Positions 12,172 to 42,997 of a stretch of DNA of 42,997 nt are shown in pieces. The position numbers and the translations under genes were made by a program. Source of the DNA: a virus; the IMG/VR virus record IMGVR_UViG_3300045988_028876, positions 1 through 42,997 of that record; one strand, 5' to 3'. Under the pieces are notes generated by a model, which worked only from the letters and a program-made list of their open reading frames with translations, did not search any database and was not told where the DNA came from. Positions within the stretch are counted from its first letter, which is position 1. Every line of letters starts with the position of its first letter.

Positions 12172-12540
12172 GTGGAGACCATCAACGAAAGAATTGCGTG
12201 GTGTATAAAAGATGCCGGGATCAAAAAGGCTGAATTTGCTCGCAGACTTAACCTTTCACAGCCGTTTGTTTCAGAGCTGTGTTCTGGGAAAAACAACCCA
12301 AGCGACCGCACCATTGCTGATATTTGCCGCAAGTTTAATATTTCCGAGCTCTGGCTACGTACCGGAGAAGGCGAGCCCCATATTCAGAGGGACGAGGACG
12401 AAGAGTTCCTTGAAGTCATGGAACAAATCCATATGTCTGATGATGATTTGATAAAGCGGATTATCAAGGCGTATTGGTTTATGGAGGACGACGAAAAAGC
12501 CGTCATCAGAAAACTGATAGACGGCTTTACAAAAAAATAA
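12172..12540 (+). CDS. XRE-family HTH repressor (CI-like, no peptidase domain)
   Basis: GTG start 9 nt after AGGAGG. HTH segment IKKAEFARRLNLSQPFVSELCSGKNNPS. It diverges from the lytic operon and sits next to the int region. Confidence 0.8.
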   Translation: METINERIAWCIKDAGIKKAEFARRLNLSQPFVSELCSGKNNPSDRTIADICRKFNISELWLRTGEGEPHIQRDEDEEFLEVMEQIHMSDDDLIKRIIKAYWFMEDDEKAVIRKLIDGFTKK

Positions 12541-13978: not shown

Positions 13979-14036
13979 CGCCACAAAACTTGAATAAAAT
14001 ATCCGCCCCCGGTGCTGGAACACCAGAGGCGGACAA

Positions 14037-14075
14037 GGGGCAGAAGCTTTTGTGGACCATCTGCCCCTTTATTCT
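14037..14075 (+). terminator. intrinsic terminator after the lipoprotein gene
   Basis: GGGGCAGA-N15-TCTGCCCC followed by TTTATTCT. Confidence 0.6.
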
Positions 14076-14098
14076 ACCGGAACGAAGGGGAAAAGTCA

Positions 14099-15217
14099 AT
14101 GAATTGTATGAAGTGCAAAGCAGACTTGCCAGACGGTGCGCTGTATTGCCCGACGTGCGGCAAAAAGCAAGCGCCGGAAAAGCGAAAGGCCCTAAAACGT
14201 GCCAACGGGACTGGGACTGTATATAAGCTCCAGGGCCGCAGGAAACGCCCGTGGGTGGCCGCAAAGAACAAGGTCATAATCGGTTACTATGAAAAAAAGA
14301 CGGAGGCTATAGAGTCTTTAGAACGCCTTGCCGGGAAAGACCTGACCGAACGGTACAATATGACATTTGCAGAGGTGTTTCGAGGGTGGAGCGAAGAACA
14401 TTATAAAACACTAACAAAAAGCGGGATCACTTCTTATGATATAGCCTACAATGTGTTCTCTGCGCTCCACAACAAAAAATTCCGTGATTTGCGCACCTCT
14501 GATTTTCAAGCAGAGCTGGATAAAATCAAAGGAAAATCCCACTCCACCATGTCAAAGCACAAGCAGCTTATCACGCAGATGTCTCAATGGGCCATCAGGG
14601 AAGAAATCTGCACGACCAACTTTGCAAAATTCGTCCGGTTGCCGGAGACCGTAAAGAAGGAAAAAGAAGTATTCTCCGCCGAAGAAATCAAAAAGCTTGA
14701 AGAAGATGGAAGCGAAGCGGCAAGAATCGTCCTCATGCTCCTAGCCACTGGTATGCGAATTGGGGAACTGTTTTCGCTCCCGTTAGAGGATTACCACAAA
14801 ACGTATGTTATAGGCGGGTCTAAGACGGAGGCAGGAAAAAACCGAGTCATCCCGATAAGGCCGGAGGGTCGGAAGCATTTTGAATACTTCGCCCAGCAAG
14901 CAGACGGGGCGTTACTTTTATCGGGGTACACGGGGCAAAAAATATATGCAAACTATCGAGGACGTGATTATTACCCTCTGCTAAAGCGGCTCGGAATTAA
15001 AAAGAAAAGTCCTCACGCTACTAGGCATACATACGCATCCAGAGCTGTGAAAGAAGGCATACCACCAGAGATTTTACAAAAAATATTAGGCCACGCCGAC
15101 TATTCTACTACGGCAAACGTATACACCCATATTGACATCAAAACACTTGTGGAAGCTGTTGACGTTACTAGCTCGTTACTAACAAATAAAAAGCCGAGAG
15201 AAAAAGAAAATCCCTAG
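14099..15217 (+). CDS. int: tyrosine integrase with N-terminal zinc ribbon
   Basis: MNCMKCKADLPDGALYCPTCG. Catalytic pattern ATGMRIGEL, HATRHTYAS and LGHADYSTTANVYTH. The start at 14099 has a GAAGGGGAAAAG SD. Confidence 0.92.
   Translation: MNCMKCKADLPDGALYCPTCGKKQAPEKRKALKRANGTGTVYKLQGRRKRPWVAAKNKVIIGYYEKKTEAIESLERLAGKDLTERYNMTFAEVFRGWSEEHYKTLTKSGITSYDIAYNVFSALHNKKFRDLRTSDFQAELDKIKGKSHSTMSKHKQLITQMSQWAIREEICTTNFAKFVRLPETVKKEKEVFSAEEIKKLEEDGSEAARIVLMLLATGMRIGELFSLPLEDYHKTYVIGGSKTEAGKNRVIPIRPEGRKHFEYFAQQADGALLLSGYTGQKIYANYRGRDYYPLLKRLGIKKKSPHATRHTYASRAVKEGIPPEILQKILGHADYSTTANVYTHIDIKTLVEAVDVTSSLLTNKKPREKENP
15134..15187 (+). repeat. left copies of attP-flanking direct repeats (GACATCAAA at 15134..15142; GTTACTAACAAAT at 15175..15187)
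   Basis: The same two words recur in the same order at 15371..15379 and 15391..15403. Confidence 0.8.
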
Positions 15218-19432: not shown

Positions 19433-19756
19433 TCAAATGGGTGGTGATGGTGATGCGCTGTCATCCTCGATAAAGCCCTTTGACTTGGCCGCTTCGAATG
19501 TAATGCCGCCCTCTTTGTGGTCGCTGGCGCAGAGGCTGAAGTAAGCCTTGCAGCCAGCTATGATAATAGCCTCACCCACACCAACCCCGGCTGTCAGCCA
19601 GGCTGCTGCGGAGGTGTAGCCGTTTGTTATACACAGATACATCAGCGCTAGACATTCTTGCACGATGACGAACCCAGACAGAATGGTCAGCACTGCGATG
19701 ATCTTGTGCCACTCCAGCTTTTTGCGGCGCTTGAGCCGCTTACCCACGGCGCTCAT
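19433..19756 (-). CDS. multi-TM membrane protein, holin-like by position (107 aa)
   Basis: Basic N-terminus KRLKRRKK, then 2-3 hydrophobic segments. It lies directly downstream of the endolysin. Confidence 0.5.
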   Translation of the reverse strand: MSAVGKRLKRRKKLEWHKIIAVLTILSGFVIVQECLALMYLCITNGYTSAAAWLTAGVGVGEAIIIAGCKAYFSLCASDHKEGGITFEAAKSKGFIEDDSASPSPPI

Positions 19757-20513
19757 CGTACCGGGCGAAGAGTGCGCCCACCTGCTCCCGGGTGATTAGG
19801 TCCTGGGGATAGGTCACCGCGCCGCCAGGTTTGAAGATTCCAAGAGCCTCCACAGCGGCCTGGTCCTGCTGCTGGAACCAGTCGCTGGCCGGCTGCTCCC
19901 GCAGCTCCTGTCTATAGCGCTCCATGTTCTCCTTGAATTTCTCATAGCTGTCCATTTCAAGTTCCTCCTTGACATCATTCCGGAAATCATCCATGCTCTT
20001 TCCAAACCGGGGAAACCAGTGTTCCACGTCCCCGTGATTGCTGGCAATGCCTAACCTGGCCCCCTCTGCGTGGCAGATCACCACACCGTCCTCCATGGGG
20101 TCCAGCCCGTACATCTCACAAAGATAGGCCGTCAGCTCCACCGCCTCCCGGTAGACGGCGGCGAAATACTCCGGGTCTGTCAAGTCGTCCTCGCAGATCT
20201 CGAAGGAGATATGGGTGCTGTTTGCGTCGTCCCCGCAGTGCCAGCCCCGCATATTCCAGGGAAGGGTCTGATAGGTGGCAACGCTTCCGTCCGCCAGCAG
20301 CCCGATAAAGGCGTGAACACAGGCCCCCACGCCGGGGCGGTTCCAATCGTTGTTGTTCTGGTTCACGCCCAAAAGGCCGTCGTCCGGGCCGACATAGCGT
20401 TTCAGGTTCGGGTTTTCCGCCCCGGTGCTGTGGACCATCACCCCCTTGGGGGTAATCCAGCGGTTGGCCTTGTAGCAATCATTCTCCGTCAGATAGAGCT
20501 GGTGCAGGTTCAT
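19740..20513 (-). CDS. endolysin: N-acetylmuramoyl-L-alanine amidase (Amidase_2/PGRP-like)
   Basis: VMVHSTGAENP..., VHAFIG and WHCGDDANSTHISFEICED. The start at MNLHQ has a GGGGAGGG SD. Confidence 0.88.
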   Translation of the reverse strand: MNLHQLYLTENDCYKANRWITPKGVMVHSTGAENPNLKRYVGPDDGLLGVNQNNNDWNRPGVGACVHAFIGLLADGSVATYQTLPWNMRGWHCGDDANSTHISFEICEDDLTDPEYFAAVYREAVELTAYLCEMYGLDPMEDGVVICHAEGARLGIASNHGDVEHWFPRFGKSMDDFRNDVKEELEMDSYEKFKENMERYRQELREQPASDWFQQQDQAAVEALGIFKPGGAVTYPQDLITREQVGALFARYDERRG

Positions 20514-20514
20514 G

Positions 20515-20718
20515 CTATCCCTCCCCGTCCAGTACATTCTGTACCTTCTGGCTCTGAGTCCCGAAGTAGAACGCGATTATCACTGCGTAGATGGTCATGA
20601 AGTCCTGGGAAATTTGATTGGTGCAGGCCATGTAGGCGAATACCGCCGTCAAGGCCAGCGTCACCAAAGACTTGACCGATAGAAGGGTCGATAATCGTTT
20701 GATGATGTTGTCCATCAC
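20515..20718 (-). CDS. holin (two TM segments, 67 aa)
   Basis: SVKSLVTLALTAVFAYMAC and FMTIYAVIIAFYFG, with a charged C-terminus. Immediately upstream of the endolysin. Confidence 0.75.
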   Translation of the reverse strand: MMDNIIKRLSTLLSVKSLVTLALTAVFAYMACTNQISQDFMTIYAVIIAFYFGTQSQKVQNVLDGEG

Positions 20719-36244: not shown

Positions 36245-37418
36245 ATTGCGGTTGTCCTGCTTTCCGCATCTTGTATCTCAGCACGGTCATCACAAAATAC
36301 CGTATGTCATCCATAGCATGGTCGTTCTCCTTGATGGGCTTGTCCTCCGTGGATTTGTCATCCCAGCGATACAGGCCGAACTCCCGAATCGAATTTTCGC
36401 AGCTACGATGGATTTTTATTGCTCCGTCATTGAGTAACTGGCTGGTCGTCTGTATCCCTGGAATTACATCGTTTTTCGCGCCCCTGACTCGGAATTTCTT
36501 GTGCTTTTTGATCGTCTCTATAAAGGCATCCGCTGATGGGTCTACAATGACAGCTTGTATTGTGTATTCCCCAGCAAGACGTTCCAATTCTTTATAATAT
36601 TCCTCCGGGCTTTTTGTGTTCATAGATTCGCGCCCGCAATAATAATATTCTCGTATTCGCGTGGCTTGTTTCCCGTTCCAACACCACAGCCCAGCAGAGA
36701 ACGGATTATGTGTTCCATAGTCGCAGGAAATGTAATATTCTCCCCCGTCTGGCACCGTGTCCACAATGTTGCCTTCGCCAAACCTGTAAATAAGGCCATC
36801 CGCTTGGCACCACAGTCCCAAGATATAGCGGTCATAATAAACCGTCCCAGCGTATTCCTTTTTCAGTTCCTCCACGACACGGACCGGAAGCACCCCGTCA
36901 TCTATGACATAGGACTGTTGGTAAATGTCAGCGTCGCTATCCAGGAACTTTTTGAACCAATGCTCCGGGTTGTCTGGGTTGCACGTCCCGTCAAAGTGGG
37001 AGTGTTCACAGCGAAGACGGCTTTTGAGCATTTCAAAGACCTCTTGGCTCCACGTCGTAATCTCATCACCGTACACATACTCAAAGGTCGCCCCCTGAAT
37101 ACGGGAAACGTGCTTTTTGTTGTCTGCGCCCAGCGCATAGACTTTTTTCCCAAACAGTTCCACGGTATTATCACTGCGAATATTGCCCACGTTTCCCGGC
37201 CACCACTGACGCATAGGCTCCAAGATATTTCGCTCTAAAGTTCCGCGAGTGTTTCCCAGTAAGACGAGTAACCCTTCTCCTCTCGCGGCCTCTATCCGCT
37301 TCGGTATGGTGACAACAAAATCCAAAAAGCTCTTTCCACTGCCTGTCGCCCCTGTCTTGACGTTCCAGCGGTGATTGCAGTTTTTCAGGTATTCCAGTTG
37401 CTTTTCAGTCAATGGCAC
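36222..37418 (-). CDS. terL: terminase large subunit (PBSX-type)
   Basis: Walker A GATGSGKS and YGDEITTW, with a nuclease-domain C-terminus ENDHAMDDIRY. Confidence 0.93.
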   Translation of the reverse strand: MPLTEKQLEYLKNCNHRWNVKTGATGSGKSFLDFVVTIPKRIEAARGEGLLVLLGNTRGTLERNILEPMRQWWPGNVGNIRSDNTVELFGKKVYALGADNKKHVSRIQGATFEYVYGDEITTWSQEVFEMLKSRLRCEHSHFDGTCNPDNPEHWFKKFLDSDADIYQQSYVIDDGVLPVRVVEELKKEYAGTVYYDRYILGLWCQADGLIYRFGEGNIVDTVPDGGEYYISCDYGTHNPFSAGLWCWNGKQATRIREYYYCGRESMNTKSPEEYYKELERLAGEYTIQAVIVDPSADAFIETIKKHKKFRVRGAKNDVIPGIQTTSQLLNDGAIKIHRSCENSIREFGLYRWDDKSTEDKPIKENDHAMDDIRYFVMTVLRYKMRKAGQPQYVPLWER

Positions 37419-37896
37419 TTGGAATCCCCTCCAGCAGTTCCCGTGCTTTTTTCAGTGCGTCCGTGTCACCGGGAATTTCGGGCTTATCCCGCCACTTGTC
37501 CGGGCGGCGGTTTTTGAGCCAGAAGATCTGCGCGGTCGTGTCCGCCGGGACATGGCGGATTGTCTGGATGATCTTCGTCCCATCTTTATCAGACTTTTCG
37601 ATTCTTTGTTCCTGATAGTCATACCCAAGTGCGCGTTTTAACAGCGCATTTTCCACTTGGATGTCCACAACTTCCTTGCCCTTTTTTAAGGACTCGGAAA
37701 TCTTAGGGTATTTGTTCTTCCAATCGTACAAAGTTGCTGGGTTTATACCCATCTTCCCGGCCAACTGCTCGTCAGTCAGGCCATCCCTGGCCCAGCCCTC
37801 TAAGAGAGTAAGCCCATCCGGTTCCAGCCAACGTTGATATTTACCTTTTGCCACAACGGACTTACCACCCCTTTCTGTAAAATTCCCTCTTGACAT
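37405..37896 (-). CDS. terS: terminase small subunit
   Basis: HTH segment DEQLAGKMGINPATLYDWKNKYPK, and FWLKNRRPDKWRDK. The start is uncertain (no SD at 37896; GTG at 37854 follows GGGGTGG). Confidence 0.78.
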   Translation of the reverse strand: MSRGNFTERGGKSVVAKGKYQRWLEPDGLTLLEGWARDGLTDEQLAGKMGINPATLYDWKNKYPKISESLKKGKEVVDIQVENALLKRALGYDYQEQRIEKSDKDGTKIIQTIRHVPADTTAQIFWLKNRRPDKWRDKPEIPGDTDALKKARELLEGIPSAID

Positions 37897-37918
37897 TACG
37901 TCCAGTTGGCCGTATTAT
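37890..37918 (+). promoter_or_regulatory. strong promoter TTGACA-N17-TATTAT for 37953..38225
   Basis: -35 at 37890..37895 (overlaps the terS ATG) and -10 at 37913..37918. Confidence 0.6.
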
Positions 37919-37936
37919 ATTCATGTCCACTTGGAC
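37900..37936. promoter_or_regulatory. two copies of the pseudo-palindromic operator GTCCAnTTGGnC flanking the -10
   Basis: GTCCAGTTGGCC at 37900..37911 and GTCCACTTGGAC at 37925..37936. Outer 9-bp arms TTACGTCCA / TGGACGTAA. Confidence 0.5.
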
Positions 37937-37952
37937 GTAATGAGGTACACCC

Positions 37953-38225
37953 ATGACTGACAACTTTGAATTTAAGGGTAAAACAGAAGTGATCCACGGA
38001 ATCACGTTCGAGGACGTGCCATCCGAAGCTCAGATATTGGCCGCGAGGCGGGCCGAGCTTGGCTTGTCCCAGCAGGAGGTAGCTGATAAAGCCCACATCC
38101 TGCTCCGCCAGTACCAGCGCTTTGAATCGGGGGAGCGTGACCTTTCCAGCTCTTCATTCCGAATCGCCATGGCTGTGTGCGACGCTTTGGAACTGGACCC
38201 CCATCGTTTTTGCGCCCCTGTCTAA
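37953..38225 (+). CDS. XRE-family HTH regulator (90 aa), monocistronic
   Basis: RRAELGLSQQEVADKAHILLRQYQRFESGERD. It has its own promoter, operators and terminator. Confidence 0.8.
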   Translation: MTDNFEFKGKTEVIHGITFEDVPSEAQILAARRAELGLSQQEVADKAHILLRQYQRFESGERDLSSSSFRIAMAVCDALELDPHRFCAPV

Positions 38226-38232
38226 GTCTCAT

Positions 38233-38262
38233 CCGCTCAGCTTAACTGCTGGGCGGTTTTTT
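38233..38262 (+). terminator. intrinsic terminator
   Basis: CCGCTCAGC-ttaact-GCTGGGCGG followed by TTTTTT. Confidence 0.7.
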
Positions 38263-38306
38263 ATCGTGCCTGATGCACTGCGTCATAAATATTTTCAAAT
38301 TATGTA

Positions 38307-38334
38307 TTGACAATTACATATTTTATGCTATAAT
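38307..38334 (+). promoter_or_regulatory. near-consensus promoter TTGACA-N16-TGcTATAAT
   Basis: -35 at 38307..38312 and -10 at 38329..38334. The inverted repeat ATGTA-N8-TACAT spans the -35. Confidence 0.65.
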
Positions 38335-38363
38335 AATCTCATGAAACAAAGGAGGCCAAACCG

Positions 38364-38600
38364 ATGAAAGAGCGATTTGAAGAAATGACCCTCGACCAGC
38401 TCGATGCCATCCATGATGTGATGTGCTATCTATACCCTCCTATGGAGGGCATGGATGAGACCGCCGCCCGTCTGTGGCATGACCTTGAGGATGTTCGCAC
38501 CCAAAAGTTTACCGAATACCAATCCAGTGATGAGTATAAGCAGAAGTGCTCCGAGACCGACGAACTGTACAAGTCTCTTTTTAAGGGGGTGTCCCAATGA
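38364..38600 (+). CDS. small strongly acidic protein (78 aa)
   Basis: AAAGGAGG SD. By my count 18 D/E against 9 K/R. ATGA overlap with the next gene. Confidence 0.65.
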   Translation: MKERFEEMTLDQLDAIHDVMCYLYPPMEGMDETAARLWHDLEDVRTQKFTEYQSSDEYKQKCSETDELYKSLFKGVSQ

Positions 38601-39073
38601 CCAACCGCGAAGCTTATGTGTTCGGCTGGGTGTTTGGCCGCCTCAACGCTGGAGCCGAAGAGGACATCGGCGGCGACACCACTCTAGCTTGCCAGCGTCC
38701 ATTTTCCGCCAGCGCCAAGGTAGTCTCGGACGCTCAACGGCTCGGCATCCTCAAAGGCAACCTTAACAATCAGGTGGGCGAGGCCCTGTGCGAGATAGTC
38801 AGCATCGAGCCTGAGATGGACGGCGGCTCCGAGAAGTGCCAGCCTCTGGAGATACAAGGCTCCTGGCAGCTCGGCTATTTTGCAGGCCGGGCCAAGAGGC
38901 CCCTGGCAGGGGAAGCGTTTGATATCTCCGCCGCCCGCCGGGCCAAAAAGCTGACTCAGGCCCAGCTTGCCGACCAGATGGGCGTTGACCAGGCTCTTGT
39001 CTCCCGCTGGGAATCCGGCAAGGTCAGCCCAAACAAAGACAATCTTTCGAGGTTAAAAGAGATCCTTCTTTGA
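38597..39073 (+). CDS. protein with a C-terminal XRE-type HTH (158 aa)
   Basis: C-terminal KKLTQAQLADQMGVDQALVSRWESGKVSP. The N-terminal ~100 aa are uncharacterised. Confidence 0.7.
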   Translation: MTNREAYVFGWVFGRLNAGAEEDIGGDTTLACQRPFSASAKVVSDAQRLGILKGNLNNQVGEALCEIVSIEPEMDGGSEKCQPLEIQGSWQLGYFAGRAKRPLAGEAFDISAARRAKKLTQAQLADQMGVDQALVSRWESGKVSPNKDNLSRLKEILL

Positions 39074-39077
39074 CGCG

Positions 39078-39104
39078 CCGCCCCTCCGGGGGCGGTTTTC
39101 TTTT
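39078..39104 (+). terminator. strong intrinsic terminator
   Basis: CCGCCCC-tccg-GGGGCGG followed by TTTTCTTTT. Confidence 0.8.
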
Positions 39105-39285
39105 AGCGGGGGCGCTCATAAATAAGATCGGTGGAGCACGGCGGTCCTGCCCCGCCCGCGCCCTATTGGCAGTGCTCCATATAGCCCTCATCGGGCTATG
39201 CTGTGGGTTGTTCCCGGCTTTGCCCACTGGCCGGACAATTTGATACCCCCTGTGTCCCTCCTGTGGGTTCAGGGGGGTGTCTACA
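39105..39285. other. GC-rich ORF-free segment with at least four stem-loops
   Basis: GGAGCAC..GTGCTCC enclosing GGCGG..CCGCC. Also ATAGCCC-tcatc-GGGCTAT, CCGGC..GCCGG and CCCCCTG..CAGGGGG. Confidence 0.4.
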
Positions 39286-39585
39286 TCACGCCAAGCAAGC
39301 ATAACAAAAGTCCAAAATAACAGCGCCTTTGTTTGTTATCGTCATTTTGTTTGTGCTTTTATCCCACTCACACTGCAAATACCCCGAACGTGCCTCTTTA
39401 CCTGGAGTGCAAAACGTCATATATTGGTTGTCTGTGCTTCTAGGTGAGGCATATATAAGAATCAAATTTGTTCCGCTGGGGACGCTCATAATCATAGAAT
39501 TAGATGCAGTTATGTTCCCATAACTATTTCCGTTCTCTGTGAACCCCGCTCCAGAGCTTCCCCCTACCATCGACTGAAAAATCAC
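39286..39585 (-). CDS. AT-rich moron, hypothetical beta-type protein (99 aa)
   Basis: GTG start 6 nt after GGTGA. Visibly lower GC than the flanks. Confidence 0.5.
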   Translation of the reverse strand: MIFQSMVGGSSGAGFTENGNSYGNITASNSMIMSVPSGTNLILIYASPRSTDNQYMTFCTPGKEARSGYLQCEWDKSTNKMTITNKGAVILDFCYACLA

Positions 39586-39632
39586 GTTCCGTCACCGCCT
39601 TTCGGCGTTTTGACGGTCAGGAGATCAGAACG

Positions 39633-39641
39633 CCCCCCCCC
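39633..39641. repeat. C9/G9 homopolymer tract in the intergenic region upstream of 39286..39585
   Basis: Nine consecutive C on the plus strand. Confidence 0.9.
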
Positions 39642-39662
39642 ATTGCCAGAAAATGGTATTGT

Positions 39663-39881
39663 TCATTTTGACGACCTCTTTCCTTCATGTTCGTTCCACC
39701 GCTTGGCACACTCAGCGGCTGCCTTTTCGTCTGCCATCTTGGAAGCATGTGTCCAATTTCTCACCGGGATAGTGTCGGATTTTCTCCCGCAGACCGGACA
39801 TTGCAGGTAAACTTTCCTTTCATTCTCCACATAGAGTGCCATCGGCGTTTCCCCACAGCACCTGTTGAACACAATGTCCAT
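39663..39881 (-). CDS. Lar-family-like zinc-ribbon (restriction alleviation-like) protein (72 aa)
   Basis: GAGGTGA SD. NRCCGETP...LQCPVCGRKS...AAAECAKRWNE matches the CxxCG..CxxCG..A..WN pattern. Confidence 0.5.
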   Translation of the reverse strand: MDIVFNRCCGETPMALYVENERKVYLQCPVCGRKSDTIPVRNWTHASKMADEKAAAECAKRWNEHEGKRSSK

Positions 39882-40074
39882 GTTGATCACCTCTTGTTGG
39901 TCCCGCCGCCGCCCTCATGCGGACGGGAGCGGGGTATAAAGCACCACCACATGGATGATGCCTTGTCCGGCATACACCGGACTTCTCTGGAGCCGAGAGG
40001 CGGTAATGAGCCGCCACGACCTCGCCGCCGTTCCCATGGCTGCGGTCCGGTCTTCTGCTCAAGCACTCGGCGTA

Positions 40075-40257
40075 TCAAAACTCGCTTTTTGCTATCTTGT
40101 CCCGTTTCTTCATGAGCTTTTGGGATTCTTTTGCTGCACTTCTGTTTGCTTTGCACTGATTGCAGTTGTTCTTGTTTTTACAAAACCAGCACCCGTCCTG
40201 CCCCCACCAGTACCAGTCAGGCATAGAAGGTCTTGGCTTGCGCTTCGCCTTTCCCAT
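40075..40257 (-). CDS. small basic Cys-rich protein (60 aa)
   Basis: GGGGG SD. Sequence MGKAKRKPRPSMPDWYWWGQDGCWFCKNKNNCNQCK... Confidence 0.5.
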   Translation of the reverse strand: MGKAKRKPRPSMPDWYWWGQDGCWFCKNKNNCNQCKANRSAAKESQKLMKKRDKIAKSEF

Positions 40258-40272
40258 GTTGCCCCCAGTCAC

Positions 40273-40732
40273 ACAATTTCGGCAGAGGACGTTAAACTAG
40301 GATAATCCGTCTGCCTATAATGCCTAGTATCACATTTGCGCTCATCAGCTTAAGATTGTCACACCATATTGGCATACCCGTATACAGGCACACATGGCAG
40401 TTTTCAGCGGGTAAGCGCTTTGCGGTCCAGCCACCTAGGATGCAGCGTCGCAATGCCGCCGGGCCGGGACCACCGGGGCAGGTCATAGCTGCCACCGCTT
40501 CCGCCTCCATGACAGGCGGGTGCCATTTCCTTCTCCGGACCCGTTAGGCACTCTTGGGTTGCCCGGTATAGTGTCTTTCCACAGTCATTTGCCGCATGGA
40601 GGGTGCGACCCTCCGGCCCTGATAAGTGGGCTGGTTCGACTGTGCGGCATATAGTGCCCAACCGATTTTCACGGGGCCGCCGGAGCGGAGCCGCTTTTGC
40701 GGGCTGCGGCTTATGTAAAGGAGGCGAGGAAT
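40273..40732. ncRNA. candidate large structured non-coding RNA region (strand unresolved)
   Basis: About 460 nt with no credible ORF in any frame. Many GC helices, for example GGAGGGT-gcg-ACCCTCC at 40599..40615, GGCAG..CTGCC and CCGC-aaaa-GCGG. A consensus TATAAT sits at 40316..40321 on the plus strand. Confidence 0.35.
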
Positions 40733-40772
40733 GAGAGAAAGGGTGTAGAGGCTTGGATGGACCTCTACACCC
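40733..40772 (-). terminator. intrinsic terminator after the XRE gene (11-bp perfect stem)
   Basis: GGGTGTAGAGG-N10-CCTCTACACCC followed by TTTCTCTC on the minus strand. Confidence 0.65.
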
Positions 40773-40843
40773 TATATTGTCGCATGGCATATCTTTTTCG
40801 CCCACCCAAATGGGTGAAGTCTATATGTTTCGGCAGGATACGA

Positions 40844-41071
40844 TTAAGGTTTATTCTCTCTTTCTCCGTCGTCCCAGCAGAAATCGTCCAAGCCGATGTG
40901 ATAGTGGTTTGCGATCTTCTTCAGTTCAGTTAATCTAGGTTCTCTTTCGCCCCGTTCGTACCGTCTCAGAGTGTTTGACCCAAGCCCCATAAGCTCTGAT
41001 TTGATTTGCATGCTAATGACTGGCCTTTCTCTCTCTCGGAGCCTCCGCAGGCGCTTTGCGAACTCACTCAA
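40844..41071 (-). CDS. XRE-family HTH protein (75 aa)
   Basis: TTG start 7 nt after GAGGAGGG. Sequence FAKRLRRLRERERPVISMQIKSELMGLGSNTLRRYERGEREP. Confidence 0.7.
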   Translation of the reverse strand: MSEFAKRLRRLRERERPVISMQIKSELMGLGSNTLRRYERGEREPRLTELKKIANHYHIGLDDFCWDDGERENKP

Positions 41072-41074
41072 GGG

Positions 41075-41248
41075 CTATCCCTCCTCATGCTGTCCACCCT
41101 CTTCGTCCACCAGATCAAGAACATACGTCTCCAAAGCAGATTCAACCTTAAAGCTTCTGGAAAACAAACGTTTCTTTTTCTTCTGGCGGAAAACTGTGAT
41201 TGATATGCCGACGGTATCATCAGGGACACGCAGTTTGTACTCTTTCAC
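41075..41248 (-). CDS. small protein (57 aa)
   Basis: GTG start in a GTGA overlap with the upstream stop, with GGGGGG 6 nt upstream. Confidence 0.4.
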   Translation of the reverse strand: MKEYKLRVPDDTVGISITVFRQKKKKRLFSRSFKVESALETYVLDLVDEEGGQHEEG

Positions 41249-41553
41249 TGTTTGCCCCCCATCTCCATAAACTTCCGGCACATGGCCGCAACCTGGATGG
41301 CCTCGCAGGCAAGGTTTTTGGCGTACGCCATCATCACGAAAACATAATCTCGTGGGTCACCATTACCGCAGATTGCATCCCATGTACGCTTCTGTTCCTC
41401 ATAGATGGCGGTCAGCTCATATCCGCACTCCTCAATCTCCTCCTGGATCACCGCCCACCCCTCATGTGCCGAGTGGAACTGTGGGAACCGCTCATTGGCT
41501 GCGGCAAGCTCCTTGTCTACCAGGACGCGGACATCTTGTTCAACGGCGTTCAT
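41245..41553 (-). CDS. hypothetical helical protein, possibly MazG-like all-alpha NTP-PPase (102 aa)
   Basis: FPQFHSAHEGWAVIQEEIEE resembles the HEG..V..EE..E motif. The assignment is tentative. Confidence 0.45.
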   Translation of the reverse strand: MNAVEQDVRVLVDKELAAANERFPQFHSAHEGWAVIQEEIEECGYELTAIYEEQKRTWDAICGNGDPRDYVFVMMAYAKNLACEAIQVAAMCRKFMEMGGKQ

Positions 41554-41831
41554 TCCTTCACCTTCTCTCTCAGCCTATTCAGATAAAACAGCGCTTTGTC
41601 CAGGTCCTGCGCTTGATTTCCCTTAAGAGGTGACCTCCAAATATACTTGACCGCCTGCCATGCCAGACCGGCCTGCACTGTGTCCTGGTATCCCATTACC
41701 ATGCTCTCTAGCGCGTCTATACACTCGACAGACCCGGCGGTGTAGTGGGGTGGATCGTTGACCATATCGGGCTGATTGCCCCAAACGCTGACCAAATATT
41801 CGTCTGGCACTGCAAAATTTTCTTCGCTCAT
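41550..41831 (-). CDS. DUF3310-family protein
   Basis: NDPPHYTAGSVECIDALE...WQAVKYIWRSPLKGNQAQDLDKALFYLNRL. Confidence 0.78.
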   Translation of the reverse strand: MSEENFAVPDEYLVSVWGNQPDMVNDPPHYTAGSVECIDALESMVMGYQDTVQAGLAWQAVKYIWRSPLKGNQAQDLDKALFYLNRLREKVKE

Positions 41832-42181
41832 CGAGCACCTCCGATGATCTCGTCAAGGGTGTAGGACTGTCCGGGCTTAATGCTGGGGAACAAGTCCTCG
41901 TTGATATACAGGTGGTCAAACACCAGGGTAGATCGCTCCCCGAGGTTGGGTGTCCGCCTGATAGCCCCATCCCGCCCAAACACACGCTTAATGGTCTTGG
42001 CATCCTCCACCTCCCGCTGGGTGAAGCGGGGCTTGTCTGTAAGGTCCCAGTCACAAGGATTCGATGTCATCCTGCAAAGTTTGTTTTTGGCGCTAAATGG
42101 ACACTCAGAAACGCAAGTCCCGTATTTAGAACAACATTCCTTGACCTCTTCCAGCGTCCAGTCCTTCAACGGCTTGTCCAT
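41828..42181 (-). CDS. hypothetical Cys-rich protein (117 aa)
   Basis: Co-oriented ORF with an ATGA-type overlap. Confidence 0.6.
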   Translation of the reverse strand: MDKPLKDWTLEEVKECCSKYGTCVSECPFSAKNKLCRMTSNPCDWDLTDKPRFTQREVEDAKTIKRVFGRDGAIRRTPNLGERSTLVFDHLYINEDLFPSIKPGQSYTLDEIIGGAR

Positions 42182-42194
42182 GTTGGCCTCCTTC

Positions 42195-42701
42195 TTATTC
42201 TACACACCGAAGTTTATTCCACATCTCAACAGACGCACCAGACAGACCGCAACAGGTGCAGTAGACTTCTTCCGATAGAGTATATTGCAGTGAATCTGCT
42301 GTCTCTTTTCGCTTTACAGTTACATCAACACATGGAATAGATCCACAATTTGGACAATCCTGCACTTCGTATGTCCCCATAACAGGGGCGCTTACTTTAT
42401 TCATTTTCATTTCATTAACCTCCATATTTCCGTTTTGATAGTCATCCTCCACCGCCTCATAACCCATCAGGCGGGCGGCTTCATGGGGGTGAGCCTCGCA
42501 CCAGGCCAGGCAGTCCAATGGAGCTTTTTTATTTAGCGGGCAGACACCGCACGTTTCATACCTATAGCAAAAATCATCCTGCGCTTCCTCGATGCTCATC
42601 TCAACCGTCTTTCTAAGCTTCATGTTTTTCCTCTTTTCTTCCTCCCAATCCACGGCAGTAACCATCCAAAGGTCAGCGCACCGGCGATATAGCCAAGCCA
42701 T
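42195..42701 (-). CDS. Cys-rich protein with a Lar-like C-terminal zinc ribbon (168 aa; an alternative start at 42623 gives 142 aa)
   Basis: C-terminal DCPNCGS...YCTCCGLSGASVEMWNK. N-terminal CGVCPL..CLAWCEAHPHEAARLMG. Confidence 0.6.
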   Translation of the reverse strand: MAWLYRRCADLWMVTAVDWEEEKRKNMKLRKTVEMSIEEAQDDFCYRYETCGVCPLNKKAPLDCLAWCEAHPHEAARLMGYEAVEDDYQNGNMEVNEMKMNKVSAPVMGTYEVQDCPNCGSIPCVDVTVKRKETADSLQYTLSEEVYCTCCGLSGASVEMWNKLRCVE

Positions 42702-42704
42702 AGT

Positions 42705-42997
42705 TCACTGCTCATGGTCGGCCTCCTCAAAATGGATTCTCCCGCAGTTGTCATACTTCATCTGCTTGTGCTGTACGCCTCTCAAGATGATGTACGCCCG
42801 CCTAAGCTGGCCGATGTCGAAGTAGCCGAAATGGCAGTCCTCAACTGGTATCTCCATCTCGTGGGCCAGCCAGCAGTAAAGGTCGTGCCGCTTCTTTCCG
42901 GCTTTTGGTTTCCCTTTCCAAAAGCTATCAAAGATAGCATGGCACATCTTTTTCCCTGTCCGCATCGGCTCGTCAGCCAACAGACCCAGGGCTTCCC
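42705..42997 (-). CDS. DUF3268-type zinc-ribbon protein, C-terminal part (continues from 187..1)
   Basis: ...ALGLLADEPMRTGKKMCHAIFDSFWKGK...EDCHFGYFDIGQLRRAY. There is no in-frame stop between the contig end and 42705. Confidence 0.7.
   Translation of the reverse strand, partial: EALGLLADEPMRTGKKMCHAIFDSFWKGKPKAGKKRHDLYCWLAHEMEIPVEDCHFGYFDIGQLRRAYIILRGVQHKQMKYDNCGRIHFEEADHEQ
42965..42997. repeat. 33-bp direct terminal repeat, copy 2
   Basis: Identical to 1..33. Confidence 0.95.

Follow-up and report, generated by a model that had tools for sequence, protein, structure and literature searches.

The 42,997-nucleotide stretch of viral DNA analyzed here at its full length (IMG/VR virus record IMGVR_UViG_3300045988_028876, positions 1 to 42,997; hereafter the window) carries, at positions 38,307 to 39,104, a compact plus-strand cassette of two genes, orf78 and orf158, with a promoter and a terminator of its own. 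A first-pass annotation had likened this cassette to the operons in which anti-CRISPR (acr) genes are followed by the gene of a helix-turn-helix (HTH) anti-CRISPR-associated (Aca) autoregulator. The sigma-70 promoter (38307-38334, plus strand) consists of TTGACA at 38307-38312, a 16-nt spacer and TATAAT at 38329-38334, with an extended -10 TG at 38326-27. The near-consensus promoter that had been claimed for this position is indeed present: it scores 12/12 and is unique in the 43-kb window at ≤1 mismatch, where the chance expectation is 0.01. Its notation as N16-TGcTATAAT gave the hexamers correctly and the spacing incorrectly, since the 16-nt spacer already includes the TGc. A ribosome-binding site read from the sequence, AAAGGAGG (AGGAGG; 38348-38355, plus strand), is located 8 nt ahead of the orf78 ATG.

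The first gene, orf78 (38364-38600, plus strand), encodes an all-helical protein of 78 amino acids (aa) that is an ORFan, that is, the product of an orphan open reading frame. Its computed net charge of -9 and isoelectric point (pI) of 4.48 agree with the strong acidity first estimated for it. The second gene, orf158 (38597-39073, plus strand), encodes a 158-aa protein and overlaps orf78 by four nucleotides; the proposed ATGA coupling is evident in this overlap, as is the XRE-type HTH domain at the C-terminus of the product (aa 111-153; 38927-39055; Pfam HTH_3, E = 1.5e-11). In the PDB, this HTH domain matches P22 C2, HigA, MBF1 and other generic XRE domains. The N-terminal domain (aa 1-105; 38597-38911) is acidic and, by profile alignment (hhalign), PDB sequence search and Foldseek, resembles the CRISPR protein Cas11c, as described below. 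An intrinsic terminator (39077-39104, plus strand) closes the unit; its 8-bp stem, in which seven pairs are G-C, is capped by a loop of 4 nt and followed by a tail of UUUUCUUUU. Its folding energy of -18.9 kcal/mol (39077-39096 plus the U-tract) is that of the strong terminator anticipated at this position, and in one relative (L007) similarity to the window stops at 39107. Both genes are under purifying selection, with ratios of nonsynonymous to synonymous substitution (dN/dS) of 0.09-0.26 overall and 0.09-0.15 for orf158.

Related loci were fetched with the 158-aa profile (80 viral and 36 genome loci, plus metagenomic contigs). The promoter and the 158-aa gene are constant across approximately 100 of these loci, while the genes between them, here termed cargo, belong to at least eight unrelated ORFan families, one of which (family A) is represented in the window by orf78. 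Among 93 classified loci, the slot between promoter (P) and HTH gene is occupied by a single gene of family B (61 aa) in 51 cases (P-[B]-HTH), family A in nine (P-[A]-HTH), family E (142 aa) in seven (P-[E]-HTH), family D (175 aa) in two (P-[D]-HTH) and family C (87 aa) in one (P-[C]-HTH). Two cargo genes in succession are found in the remainder, as P-[G][A]-HTH (14 loci), P-[H][A]-HTH (six), P-[H2][E]-HTH (two) and P-[G][E2]-HTH (one). Loci L090 and L091 harbor further cargo types in the same slot. The exchange can be followed in locus L086, where the cargo A protein is identical to that of the window (dS 0.02) and the HTH gene is only 67% identical (dS 0.56), placing a recombination junction exactly between the two genes. 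This is the guilt-by-association pattern that the first-pass annotation had proposed to look for: the same 158-aa HTH gene stands behind unrelated small genes in shuffled combinations, and a pattern of invariable partners, which would have spoken against the annotation, is not what was found. Cargo and regulators are shuffled here in the way reported for the network of acr and aca genes (PMC9765179).

The cargo proteins are 61-175 aa in length, and long hydrophobic stretches are not apparent on inspection of their sequences. All families except G are acidic (pI 4.1-5.1), and none has a match in Pfam, PHROGs, NCBIfam, PADLOC or the PDB sequences, solved anti-CRISPR (Acr) proteins included. The orf78 family itself is small, comprising 36 clusters at 90% identity and nine representatives among the 1.8 billion proteins searched with HMMER. 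The assignment of orf78 to a known family was pursued through Pfam, PHROGs, PADLOC, NCBIfam, PDB sequences and the same HMMER search and was rejected, as these returned close relatives or nothing. The exact protein is encoded on 242 metagenomic contigs, on every one of which it is annotated as hypothetical, and the peptides looked for in the literature search appear in no paper. The structure prediction suggested earlier for the 78-aa protein gave a confident AlphaFold2 model of four helices (predicted local distance difference test, pLDDT, 89.8) and no fold match in the PDB by Foldseek (best E = 1.8). The case for an anti-defence role of orf78 is therefore one of association, together with acidity and ORFan status, because no cargo protein matches a known Acr, defence or solved protein; that the orf78 protein is itself an inhibitor is conceivable, though we lean slightly against it.

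Family G differs from the other cargo in being basic (97 aa, MYNKHEIM...YTNAWNRKR..., pI 10). It heads 44 viral operons in which the other genes differ and the terminal regulators are of at least five kinds: the 158-aa family, a 172-aa variant, 59-aa and 68-aa XRE proteins, a 144-aa protein with a C-terminal HTH and proteins of ~160 aa with an N-terminal HTH. These operons (L132-L175, for example L149, L151, L153, L159 and L162) contain many further ORFan genes and have regulator-specific palindromes in their core promoters; in gut phages they constitute a large unannotated pool of candidate anti-defence genes. Some relatives of the cassette also have an extra gene on the same strand after the HTH gene (L132, at +752..+1162 after cargo G; L152 and L153; L130 and L131; L209, 10445-10801), which is a 118-aa open reading frame or else encodes a very basic protein (117-136 aa, pI 10.1) in which four CxxC pairs are present. 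These genes may be additional cargo downstream of the regulator.

The promoter is overlapped by two predicted operators. O1, TATGTAttgacaatTACATA (38301-38320), is a 20-bp site of the form TATG-N12-CATA with palindromic ends that encloses the -35 hexamer, and O2, TATGctataataatctCATG (38324-38343; consensus TATG-N12-CATA), lies over the -10 hexamer and the predicted start site. O1 contains the inverted repeat that had been noticed as ATGTA-N8-TACAT, which in fact has 6-bp arms (TATGTA 38301-06 and TACATA 38315-20). In the window sequence alone the repeat does not rise above chance (fold z = -0.94), and we hold it to be real because of its conservation: a promoter core of ~45 bp, TATGTATTGACAAnnnCATATTTTATGnTATAATnnnnnCATaAA, hardly varies among the 33 unique promoters of 90 loci, whatever the cargo type, and has random flanks. 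The conserved bases of this core outside the hexamers are four TATG/CATA half-sites, which we read as the two 20-bp sites. The O1 of locus L158 is fully palindromic, with arms of 9 bp (TATGTATTT/AAATACATA). The fifth position of O2 is paired as A:T in 18 unique promoters and as C:G in five, is mismatched in nine, and has a T:A version in L089.

The strongest evidence that the HTH protein would bind O1 and O2 is comparative, in that the operator sequence switches whenever the HTH type switches. Regulators with an SRWESGKV-type HTH pair with the TATGTA..TACATA operator; those with an NIRQ-type HTH pair with TACGCYAAT/ATTRGCGTA or ATAGGCTAA/TTAGCCTAT; and the 160-aa regulators with an N-terminal HTH pair with TACTTG/CAAGTA. 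All of these palindromes sit at the same place inside near-consensus core promoters, and the operons compared share cargo G. Conserved inverted repeats inside the core promoter are likewise found for all tested Aca families (PMC9410906). The location of the sites over the -35 and -10 hexamers implies that the promoter would be repressed by occlusion, in the manner demonstrated for Aca proteins (PMC9410906). The O1/O2 motif occurs nowhere else in the window, and nowhere else in L206, a relative whose sequence includes a cas operon. Consequently, regulation appears to be autogenous, and repression of the host cas operon by the HTH protein was considered and rejected, since the motif is limited to the cassette promoter in both sequences. 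We regard the modular, autoregulated architecture of the operon as very probable. The acr-aca-like layout first proposed is thereby upheld, with variable small genes ahead of a constant HTH gene and inverted repeats inside the core promoter. The description of the 158-aa protein as a regulator also holds, as the operator tracks the HTH type; it is incomplete, as the N-terminal two thirds of the protein are Cas11c-like.

With 216 clusters matching at E ≤ 0.001, the orf158 family is a large one; among these, the 120 matches listed are all full length and 61-97% identical to the query. With the AlphaFold2 model of orf158 (pLDDT 87.9), strong Foldseek matches in the PDB were all to the ~50-residue HTH domain, and a long match that stood out was to chain I of 8dej, the type I-C Cascade of D. 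vulgaris (112 columns; template modelling score 0.44, normalised to the whole query; probability 0.98; E = 0.43). The modelled length of this chain, 535 residues, leads us to regard it as Cas8c. A first comparison with host Cas8c of the L206/L209 type paired QGSWQLGYF in orf158 with QGSFQLGYY (pairwise BLASTP E = 0.018). For profile comparison, the alignment of the N-terminal domain was diversified with members at 33-58% identity, and 121 sequences were aligned for the C-terminal part of Cas8c. Many of the latter begin at an internal MSLNPD... methionine and look like free-standing Cas11c.

Local hhalign aligned residues 2-101 of orf158 with nearly the whole of Cas11c in 93 collinear columns (probability 94.5%, E = 7e-8, score 47.1). 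Sixty column-shuffled templates scored 12.0 ± 2.4 (maximum 18.2), the reversed control 11.6 and unrelated helical alignments ~12, and a second run gave a probability of 89.7% and E = 1.9e-6. When a hidden Markov model of the N-terminal domain was searched against 177,635 PDB sequences, the top match was 8g9s_H, “Cas11” of a type I-C Cascade, aligned from end to end, and Cas8 of the same entry also matched. Three independent methods thus converge on one small family, and on these comparisons it is very likely that the N-terminal domain of orf158 is homologous to Cas11c, which forms the C-terminal domain of Cas8c/Csd1 in type I-C. The two share a collinear profile alignment of ~90 residues, a helical-bundle fold and two motifs, Y-x-[LF]-G-[RW]-[LV]-F near the N-terminus and Q-G-[SA]-[FW]-Q-L-G-Y-[YF] near the C-terminus. 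The similarity is distant (~26% identity).

The viral domain differs from Cas11c in being phage-encoded, fused to an HTH, below the threshold of PF09709 and acidic rather than basic. All 14 viral members compared are acidic (net charge -1 to -8, pI 4.5-6.1), whereas 21 database sequences of Cas11c or the Cas8c C-terminus are basic (net charge +3 to +8, pI 8.9-10.0). No cas gene and no CRISPR array was found in the window, and orf158 is therefore an orphan, diverged cas-derived gene. Because it is below PF09709, outside a cas operon and acidic, we consider it a derived homolog rather than a bona fide Cas11c. The homology points specifically at type I-C CRISPR and makes orf158 the strongest effector candidate of the cassette.

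The Cas11-like domain may also have a function of its own. In loci L155 and L156 it is retained with a different HTH and a different operator, and standalone phage proteins of 98 and 107 aa in BFVD share the fold of the N-terminal domain; both observations argue for independent action. Four human-gut phage proteins in BFVD (A0A8S5MN34, A0A8S5U7E3, A0A8S5LWF5 and A0A8S5MS93) have the orf158 fold at ~21% identity, either over the full length (157 and 165 aa) or in the N-terminal part only. Cas11-like phage proteins, HTH-fused and standalone, may thus form a group broader than the orf158 family. A Cas origin of the other cargo proteins and regulators was rejected: when 25 of them were compared by BLASTP with the seven Cas proteins of L206, the best E was 0.012, over short stretches.

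Relatives carrying the cassette are prophages or viral contigs. In most, the cassette is found at the prophage end proximal to the attachment (att) site, with the host junction or integrase on one side and the endolysin on the other; there it is antisense to the lysis genes and retains its own promoter and terminator. In the prophage insertions of L206 and L209, the cassette-bearing end is 0.6-1.5 kb from a complete type I-C locus, cas3-cas5d-csd1-cas7-cas4-cas1-cas2 (L206, 163-7856; L209, 1-8057). L209 also has CRISPR repeats beyond cas2 (TATTTCAATCCACGCTCCCCATGAGGGGAGCGAC), the sequence of which we take to be I-C-like. In L207 and L208, a prophage of the same type occupies another site in the chromosome.

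Comparison with characterized systems places the cassette close to the acr-aca operons (Aca1-Aca14). Like these, it has a near-consensus promoter with inverted repeats inside the core (PMC9410906), small exchangeable upstream genes and a constant last HTH gene on one strand with tiny gaps, and a prophage location; regulators recombine with different cargo, and vice versa (PMC9765179). The regulator itself falls outside the known Aca families, since its matches to Aca3 (9vt3, E = 0.08) and Aca10 (7xi5, Foldseek E = 0.55) are no better than those to P22 C2 or HigA. It is also longer: AcaFinder filters for HTH proteins of <150 aa (PMC9765179), whereas the cassette regulators, at 158-161 aa, carry an extra 100-aa domain beside a clear HTH_3, so that this existing pipeline would discard orf158. 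The cassette further differs from acr-aca operons in that no cargo is a known Acr; its sole link to an Acr is the homology of the orf158 N-terminus to the Cas region from which AcrIB4 derives.

In Listeria, type I-B immunity is inhibited by AcrIB4, a protein with 38% identity to the final 90 residues of Cas8b; it was shown to act upstream of DNA binding, blocking target binding while Cascade still assembles (bioRxiv 10.1101/2023.06.24.545427). According to one proposal, AcrIB4 takes the place of Cas11, which in types I-C and I-B is translated from a start inside cas8, runs along the Cas7 backbone and keeps the displaced strand stable (bioRxiv 10.1101/2025.06.06.658234). Both AcrIB4 and orf158 are proteins of mobile genetic elements that correspond to the C-terminal, Cas11-equivalent part of a type I Cas8 and are encoded away from a cas operon. 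They differ in the source, which is type I-C rather than I-B for orf158, in the degree of similarity (~26% at the profile level versus 38% by BLAST) and in the fusion to an HTH. By its placement, as an orphan cas homolog on a mobile element in an anti-defence-like cluster, orf158 fits the class of Cas-derived Acrs (AcrIB3/AcrIB4/AcrVIA2).

A precedent for the combination of inhibitor and regulator exists in AcrIIA1 of Listeria, which is a Cas9 inhibitor and an HTH autorepressor in one polypeptide and whose gene is an anchor beside variable acr genes (PMC9410906). Similarly, orf158 is a conserved anchor gene combining an HTH with a second domain presumably aimed at a CRISPR effector. In orf158, however, the HTH is C-terminal (the order being reversed), the second domain derives from a Cas protein and would presumably target type I-C Cascade rather than Cas9, and there is no sequence similarity to AcrIIA1. 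A published survey of orphan viral cas genes, using tblastn at E < 1e-4, reported 24 viral cas8c hits, nearly all from Lachnospirales where a host is given (bioRxiv 10.1101/2023.06.24.545427, Table S3). Overlap with these loci was looked for and rejected, as none of the 24 contigs carries the orf158 family; with a pairwise BLASTP E of 0.018, the family was not findable at the threshold of that survey.

These lines of evidence lead us to favor an anti-CRISPR or anti-defence function for the operon, to which we assign a probability of roughly 60%. In the mechanism that we propose, the host-type near-consensus promoter would fire without a phage factor, on entry or in the lysogen, and would transcribe the variable slot, here the 78-aa acidic helical protein, together with the constant last gene. 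The XRE HTH of orf158 would bind the two 20-bp operators as a dimer and shut the promoter as the protein accumulates, which is the Aca role. The Cas11c-like domain, with its DNA-facing charge reversed, would enter the host Cascade, or compete for it, as a defective subunit, which is the Acr role; with such a subunit the R-loop might not be stabilised, or Cas3 might not be licensed. The 78-aa protein could be a second, independent inhibitor. We therefore propose that orf158 may be a poison subunit and an autorepressor at once, combining the principles of AcrIB4 and AcrIIA1; repression by the HTH domain, poisoning of Cascade and any activity of the 78-aa protein are what we infer here from comparison.

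Several observations weigh against this interpretation. No protein of the operon is homologous to a validated Acr in PDB sequences, Pfam, PHROGs, NCBIfam or PADLOC. The PDB matches that support the Cas11c relationship are individually weak (hmmsearch E = 0.11, Foldseek E = 0.43), and Pfam Cas_Csd1 (PF09709) does not match orf158 at E < 0.1. When the C-terminal QGSWQLGY motif is left out, the hhalign score falls to 18.1 (E = 0.016), at the upper limit of the shuffled controls, indicating that part of the Cas11c signal is concentrated in this motif; the alignment remains collinear. The right half-site of O2 is degenerate in the window, and its covariation is weak, with nine of 32 unique promoters mismatched at the fifth position. 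The adjacency to type I-C loci was seen in the relatives L206 and L209, and self-targeting was looked for and rejected, as the three spacers visible in L209, a very small sample, match none of the phage loci collected. The Cas11-like fold could also have been exapted simply as a dimerisation domain, and the att-proximal “moron” position is typical as well of lysogenic-conversion genes unrelated to anti-defence.

The last two points are the core of an alternative that deserves attention even though we think it unlikely, namely that the cassette is a generic lysogenic-conversion locus, with the HTH protein acting only as a transcription factor, the Cas11-like bundle exapted for dimerisation or ligand binding, and the variable small proteins modulating host physiology or phage development rather than immunity. 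The att-proximal end, the orientation antisense to the lysis genes and the private promoter and terminator are the classical setting of conversion genes. Among the cargo there is nothing similar to a known anti-defence protein, and the similarity to Cas11c is distant. Set against this, small acidic ORFans that are rapidly exchanged behind a constant autorepressor are the signature of an anti-defence locus, and the exapted domain would happen to come specifically from a CRISPR effector subunit, to have its charge reversed in all 14 viral members compared, and to be retained in L155 and L156 where HTH and operator were swapped. A superinfection-exclusion or defence cassette, expressed from the lysogen under HTH control, had been named as an alternative in the first-pass annotation and would account for the insulated unit, its prophage-end position and a host-type promoter expected to be active in lysogens. 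This now seems very unlikely: PADLOC defence-family matches are limited to the generic HTH, cargo of 61-175 aa without a Pfam or NCBIfam match has no recognisable enzymatic domain, and the Cas11c-derived domain is left unexplained. Still harder to credit is a type II toxin-antitoxin system of reversed order, like HigBA or MqsRA, with a 78-aa toxin and an HTH antitoxin. A small gene translationally coupled to a following XRE-HTH gene, and weak HTH-level matches to HigA, MqsA and HipB, are as such a system would have them; however, the antitoxin similarity is confined to the generic HTH domain, and the 78-aa protein is acidic and helical, without a toxin fold or family match. An antitoxin must, moreover, match its toxin, and we rejected this possibility because one conserved HTH protein is paired with many unrelated upstream proteins.

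A different use of the Cas11c-like domain would keep the anti-CRISPR function and alter its logic. Besides or instead of acting as a poison, the domain could be a sensor that docks onto type I-C Cascade and so pulls the repressor off O1 and O2; the output of the operon, cargo inhibitors included, would then be titrated to the amount of CRISPR effector, forming a target-responsive anti-CRISPR circuit. The fusion of a Cas11-like domain to two HTH/operator systems, one in L155/L156 and one in the orf158 family, is what selection for sensor coupling would produce, and we consider such sensing improbable though worth stating. Its strict form, in which the domain is non-inhibitory, titrates the repressor by docking on Cascade and leaves the cargo as the real inhibitors, is a little less probable again. 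In its favor, a Cascade-subunit homolog is fused to an operator-binding HTH of either of two types, each with its own operator, and the cargo slot is always upstream within the same transcript. This form is nevertheless entirely inferential, we know of no precedent for it, and the standalone N-terminal-domain folds in other phages (98 and 107 aa in BFVD) suggest action independent of an HTH. The poison-subunit model is the simpler of the two, with AcrIB4 as its experimental precedent.

The window is a temperate phage genome, encoding an integrase (14012-15217), a CI-like repressor (12172-12540), an endolysin (19740-20537) and the terminase genes terS and terL. It belongs to a phage of gut Clostridia; the closest isolate among its relatives is Flavonifractor phage Chenonceau, which is without the region 37873-39897. 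The cassette occupies a gap, not the inside of an operon: one minus-strand block ends on one side of it, and the late (terS) block starts on the other. It had been placed just upstream of terS (37405-37896, minus strand; PHROG terminase small subunit, E = 4e-61); it is upstream of this gene and does not directly adjoin it, as a separate orf90 unit intervenes (37890-38262, plus strand).

The orf90 unit, which is outside the conserved core of the cassette, consists of its own promoter (37890-37918), orf90 (37953-38225) and a terminator (38233-38256; -17.7 kcal/mol, z = -6.75). The promoter, which scores 11/12, overlaps the terS start, and orf90 encodes a 90-aa XRE HTH protein. Palindromes in the promoter region, TTACGTCCA (37896-904) and TGGACGTAA (37932-940), are unrelated to the cassette operators; sites of the GTCCAnnTGGAC type are also found at ~37899-37910 and ~37925-37936. 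The unit accompanies the cassette at the early/late junction in phages with different terminase and capsid modules and is missing from most other cassette loci. Its product could be a second autoregulated regulator or could control the late operon.

On the other side of the cassette, a G+C-rich intergenic stretch of ~190 bp (39100-39290) runs from the terminator to the 3′ end of a convergent 99-aa minus-strand gene. A structured RNA was considered here and rejected, as there was no Rfam match in 37000-42997 and the stretch gave a fold z of only -2.1. Similarity to loci L008 and L086 runs through this stretch up to ~39686. Two small cysteine-rich CxxC proteins are encoded nearby (39663-39890 and 40075-40272, both on the minus strand). 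The former, of 75 aa, ends in ‘...KRWNE’, reminiscent of Lar-type restriction-alleviation proteins; a Lar-like identity found no support, BLASTP against the annotated Lar-like protein of Chenonceau giving a non-significant E = 0.2. Weak Lar_restr_allev matches are found a few kb away in the related phages L199-L202, and near the cassette in L005.

What we rate as new here is a candidate Acr derived from type I-C Cas11 that appears to be fused to its own Aca and to anchor a hypervariable cargo slot. If this interpretation is correct, orf158 would represent an inhibitor of type I-C derived from Cas11 or the Cas8 C-terminal domain, and would extend the class of anti-CRISPRs that are viral cas genes beyond the type I-B systems of Listeria. 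Type I-C is the subtype used in long-range genome deletion tools. It would also be, to our knowledge, the first known Cas-derived domain fused to the repressor of its own operon. The cassette family is common, the exact 78-aa protein alone being present on 242 metagenomic contigs, and orf158 would provide a new anchor gene for the discovery of anti-CRISPR and anti-defence genes in phages of gut Clostridia, where at least 8-20 unannotated cargo families adjoin it.

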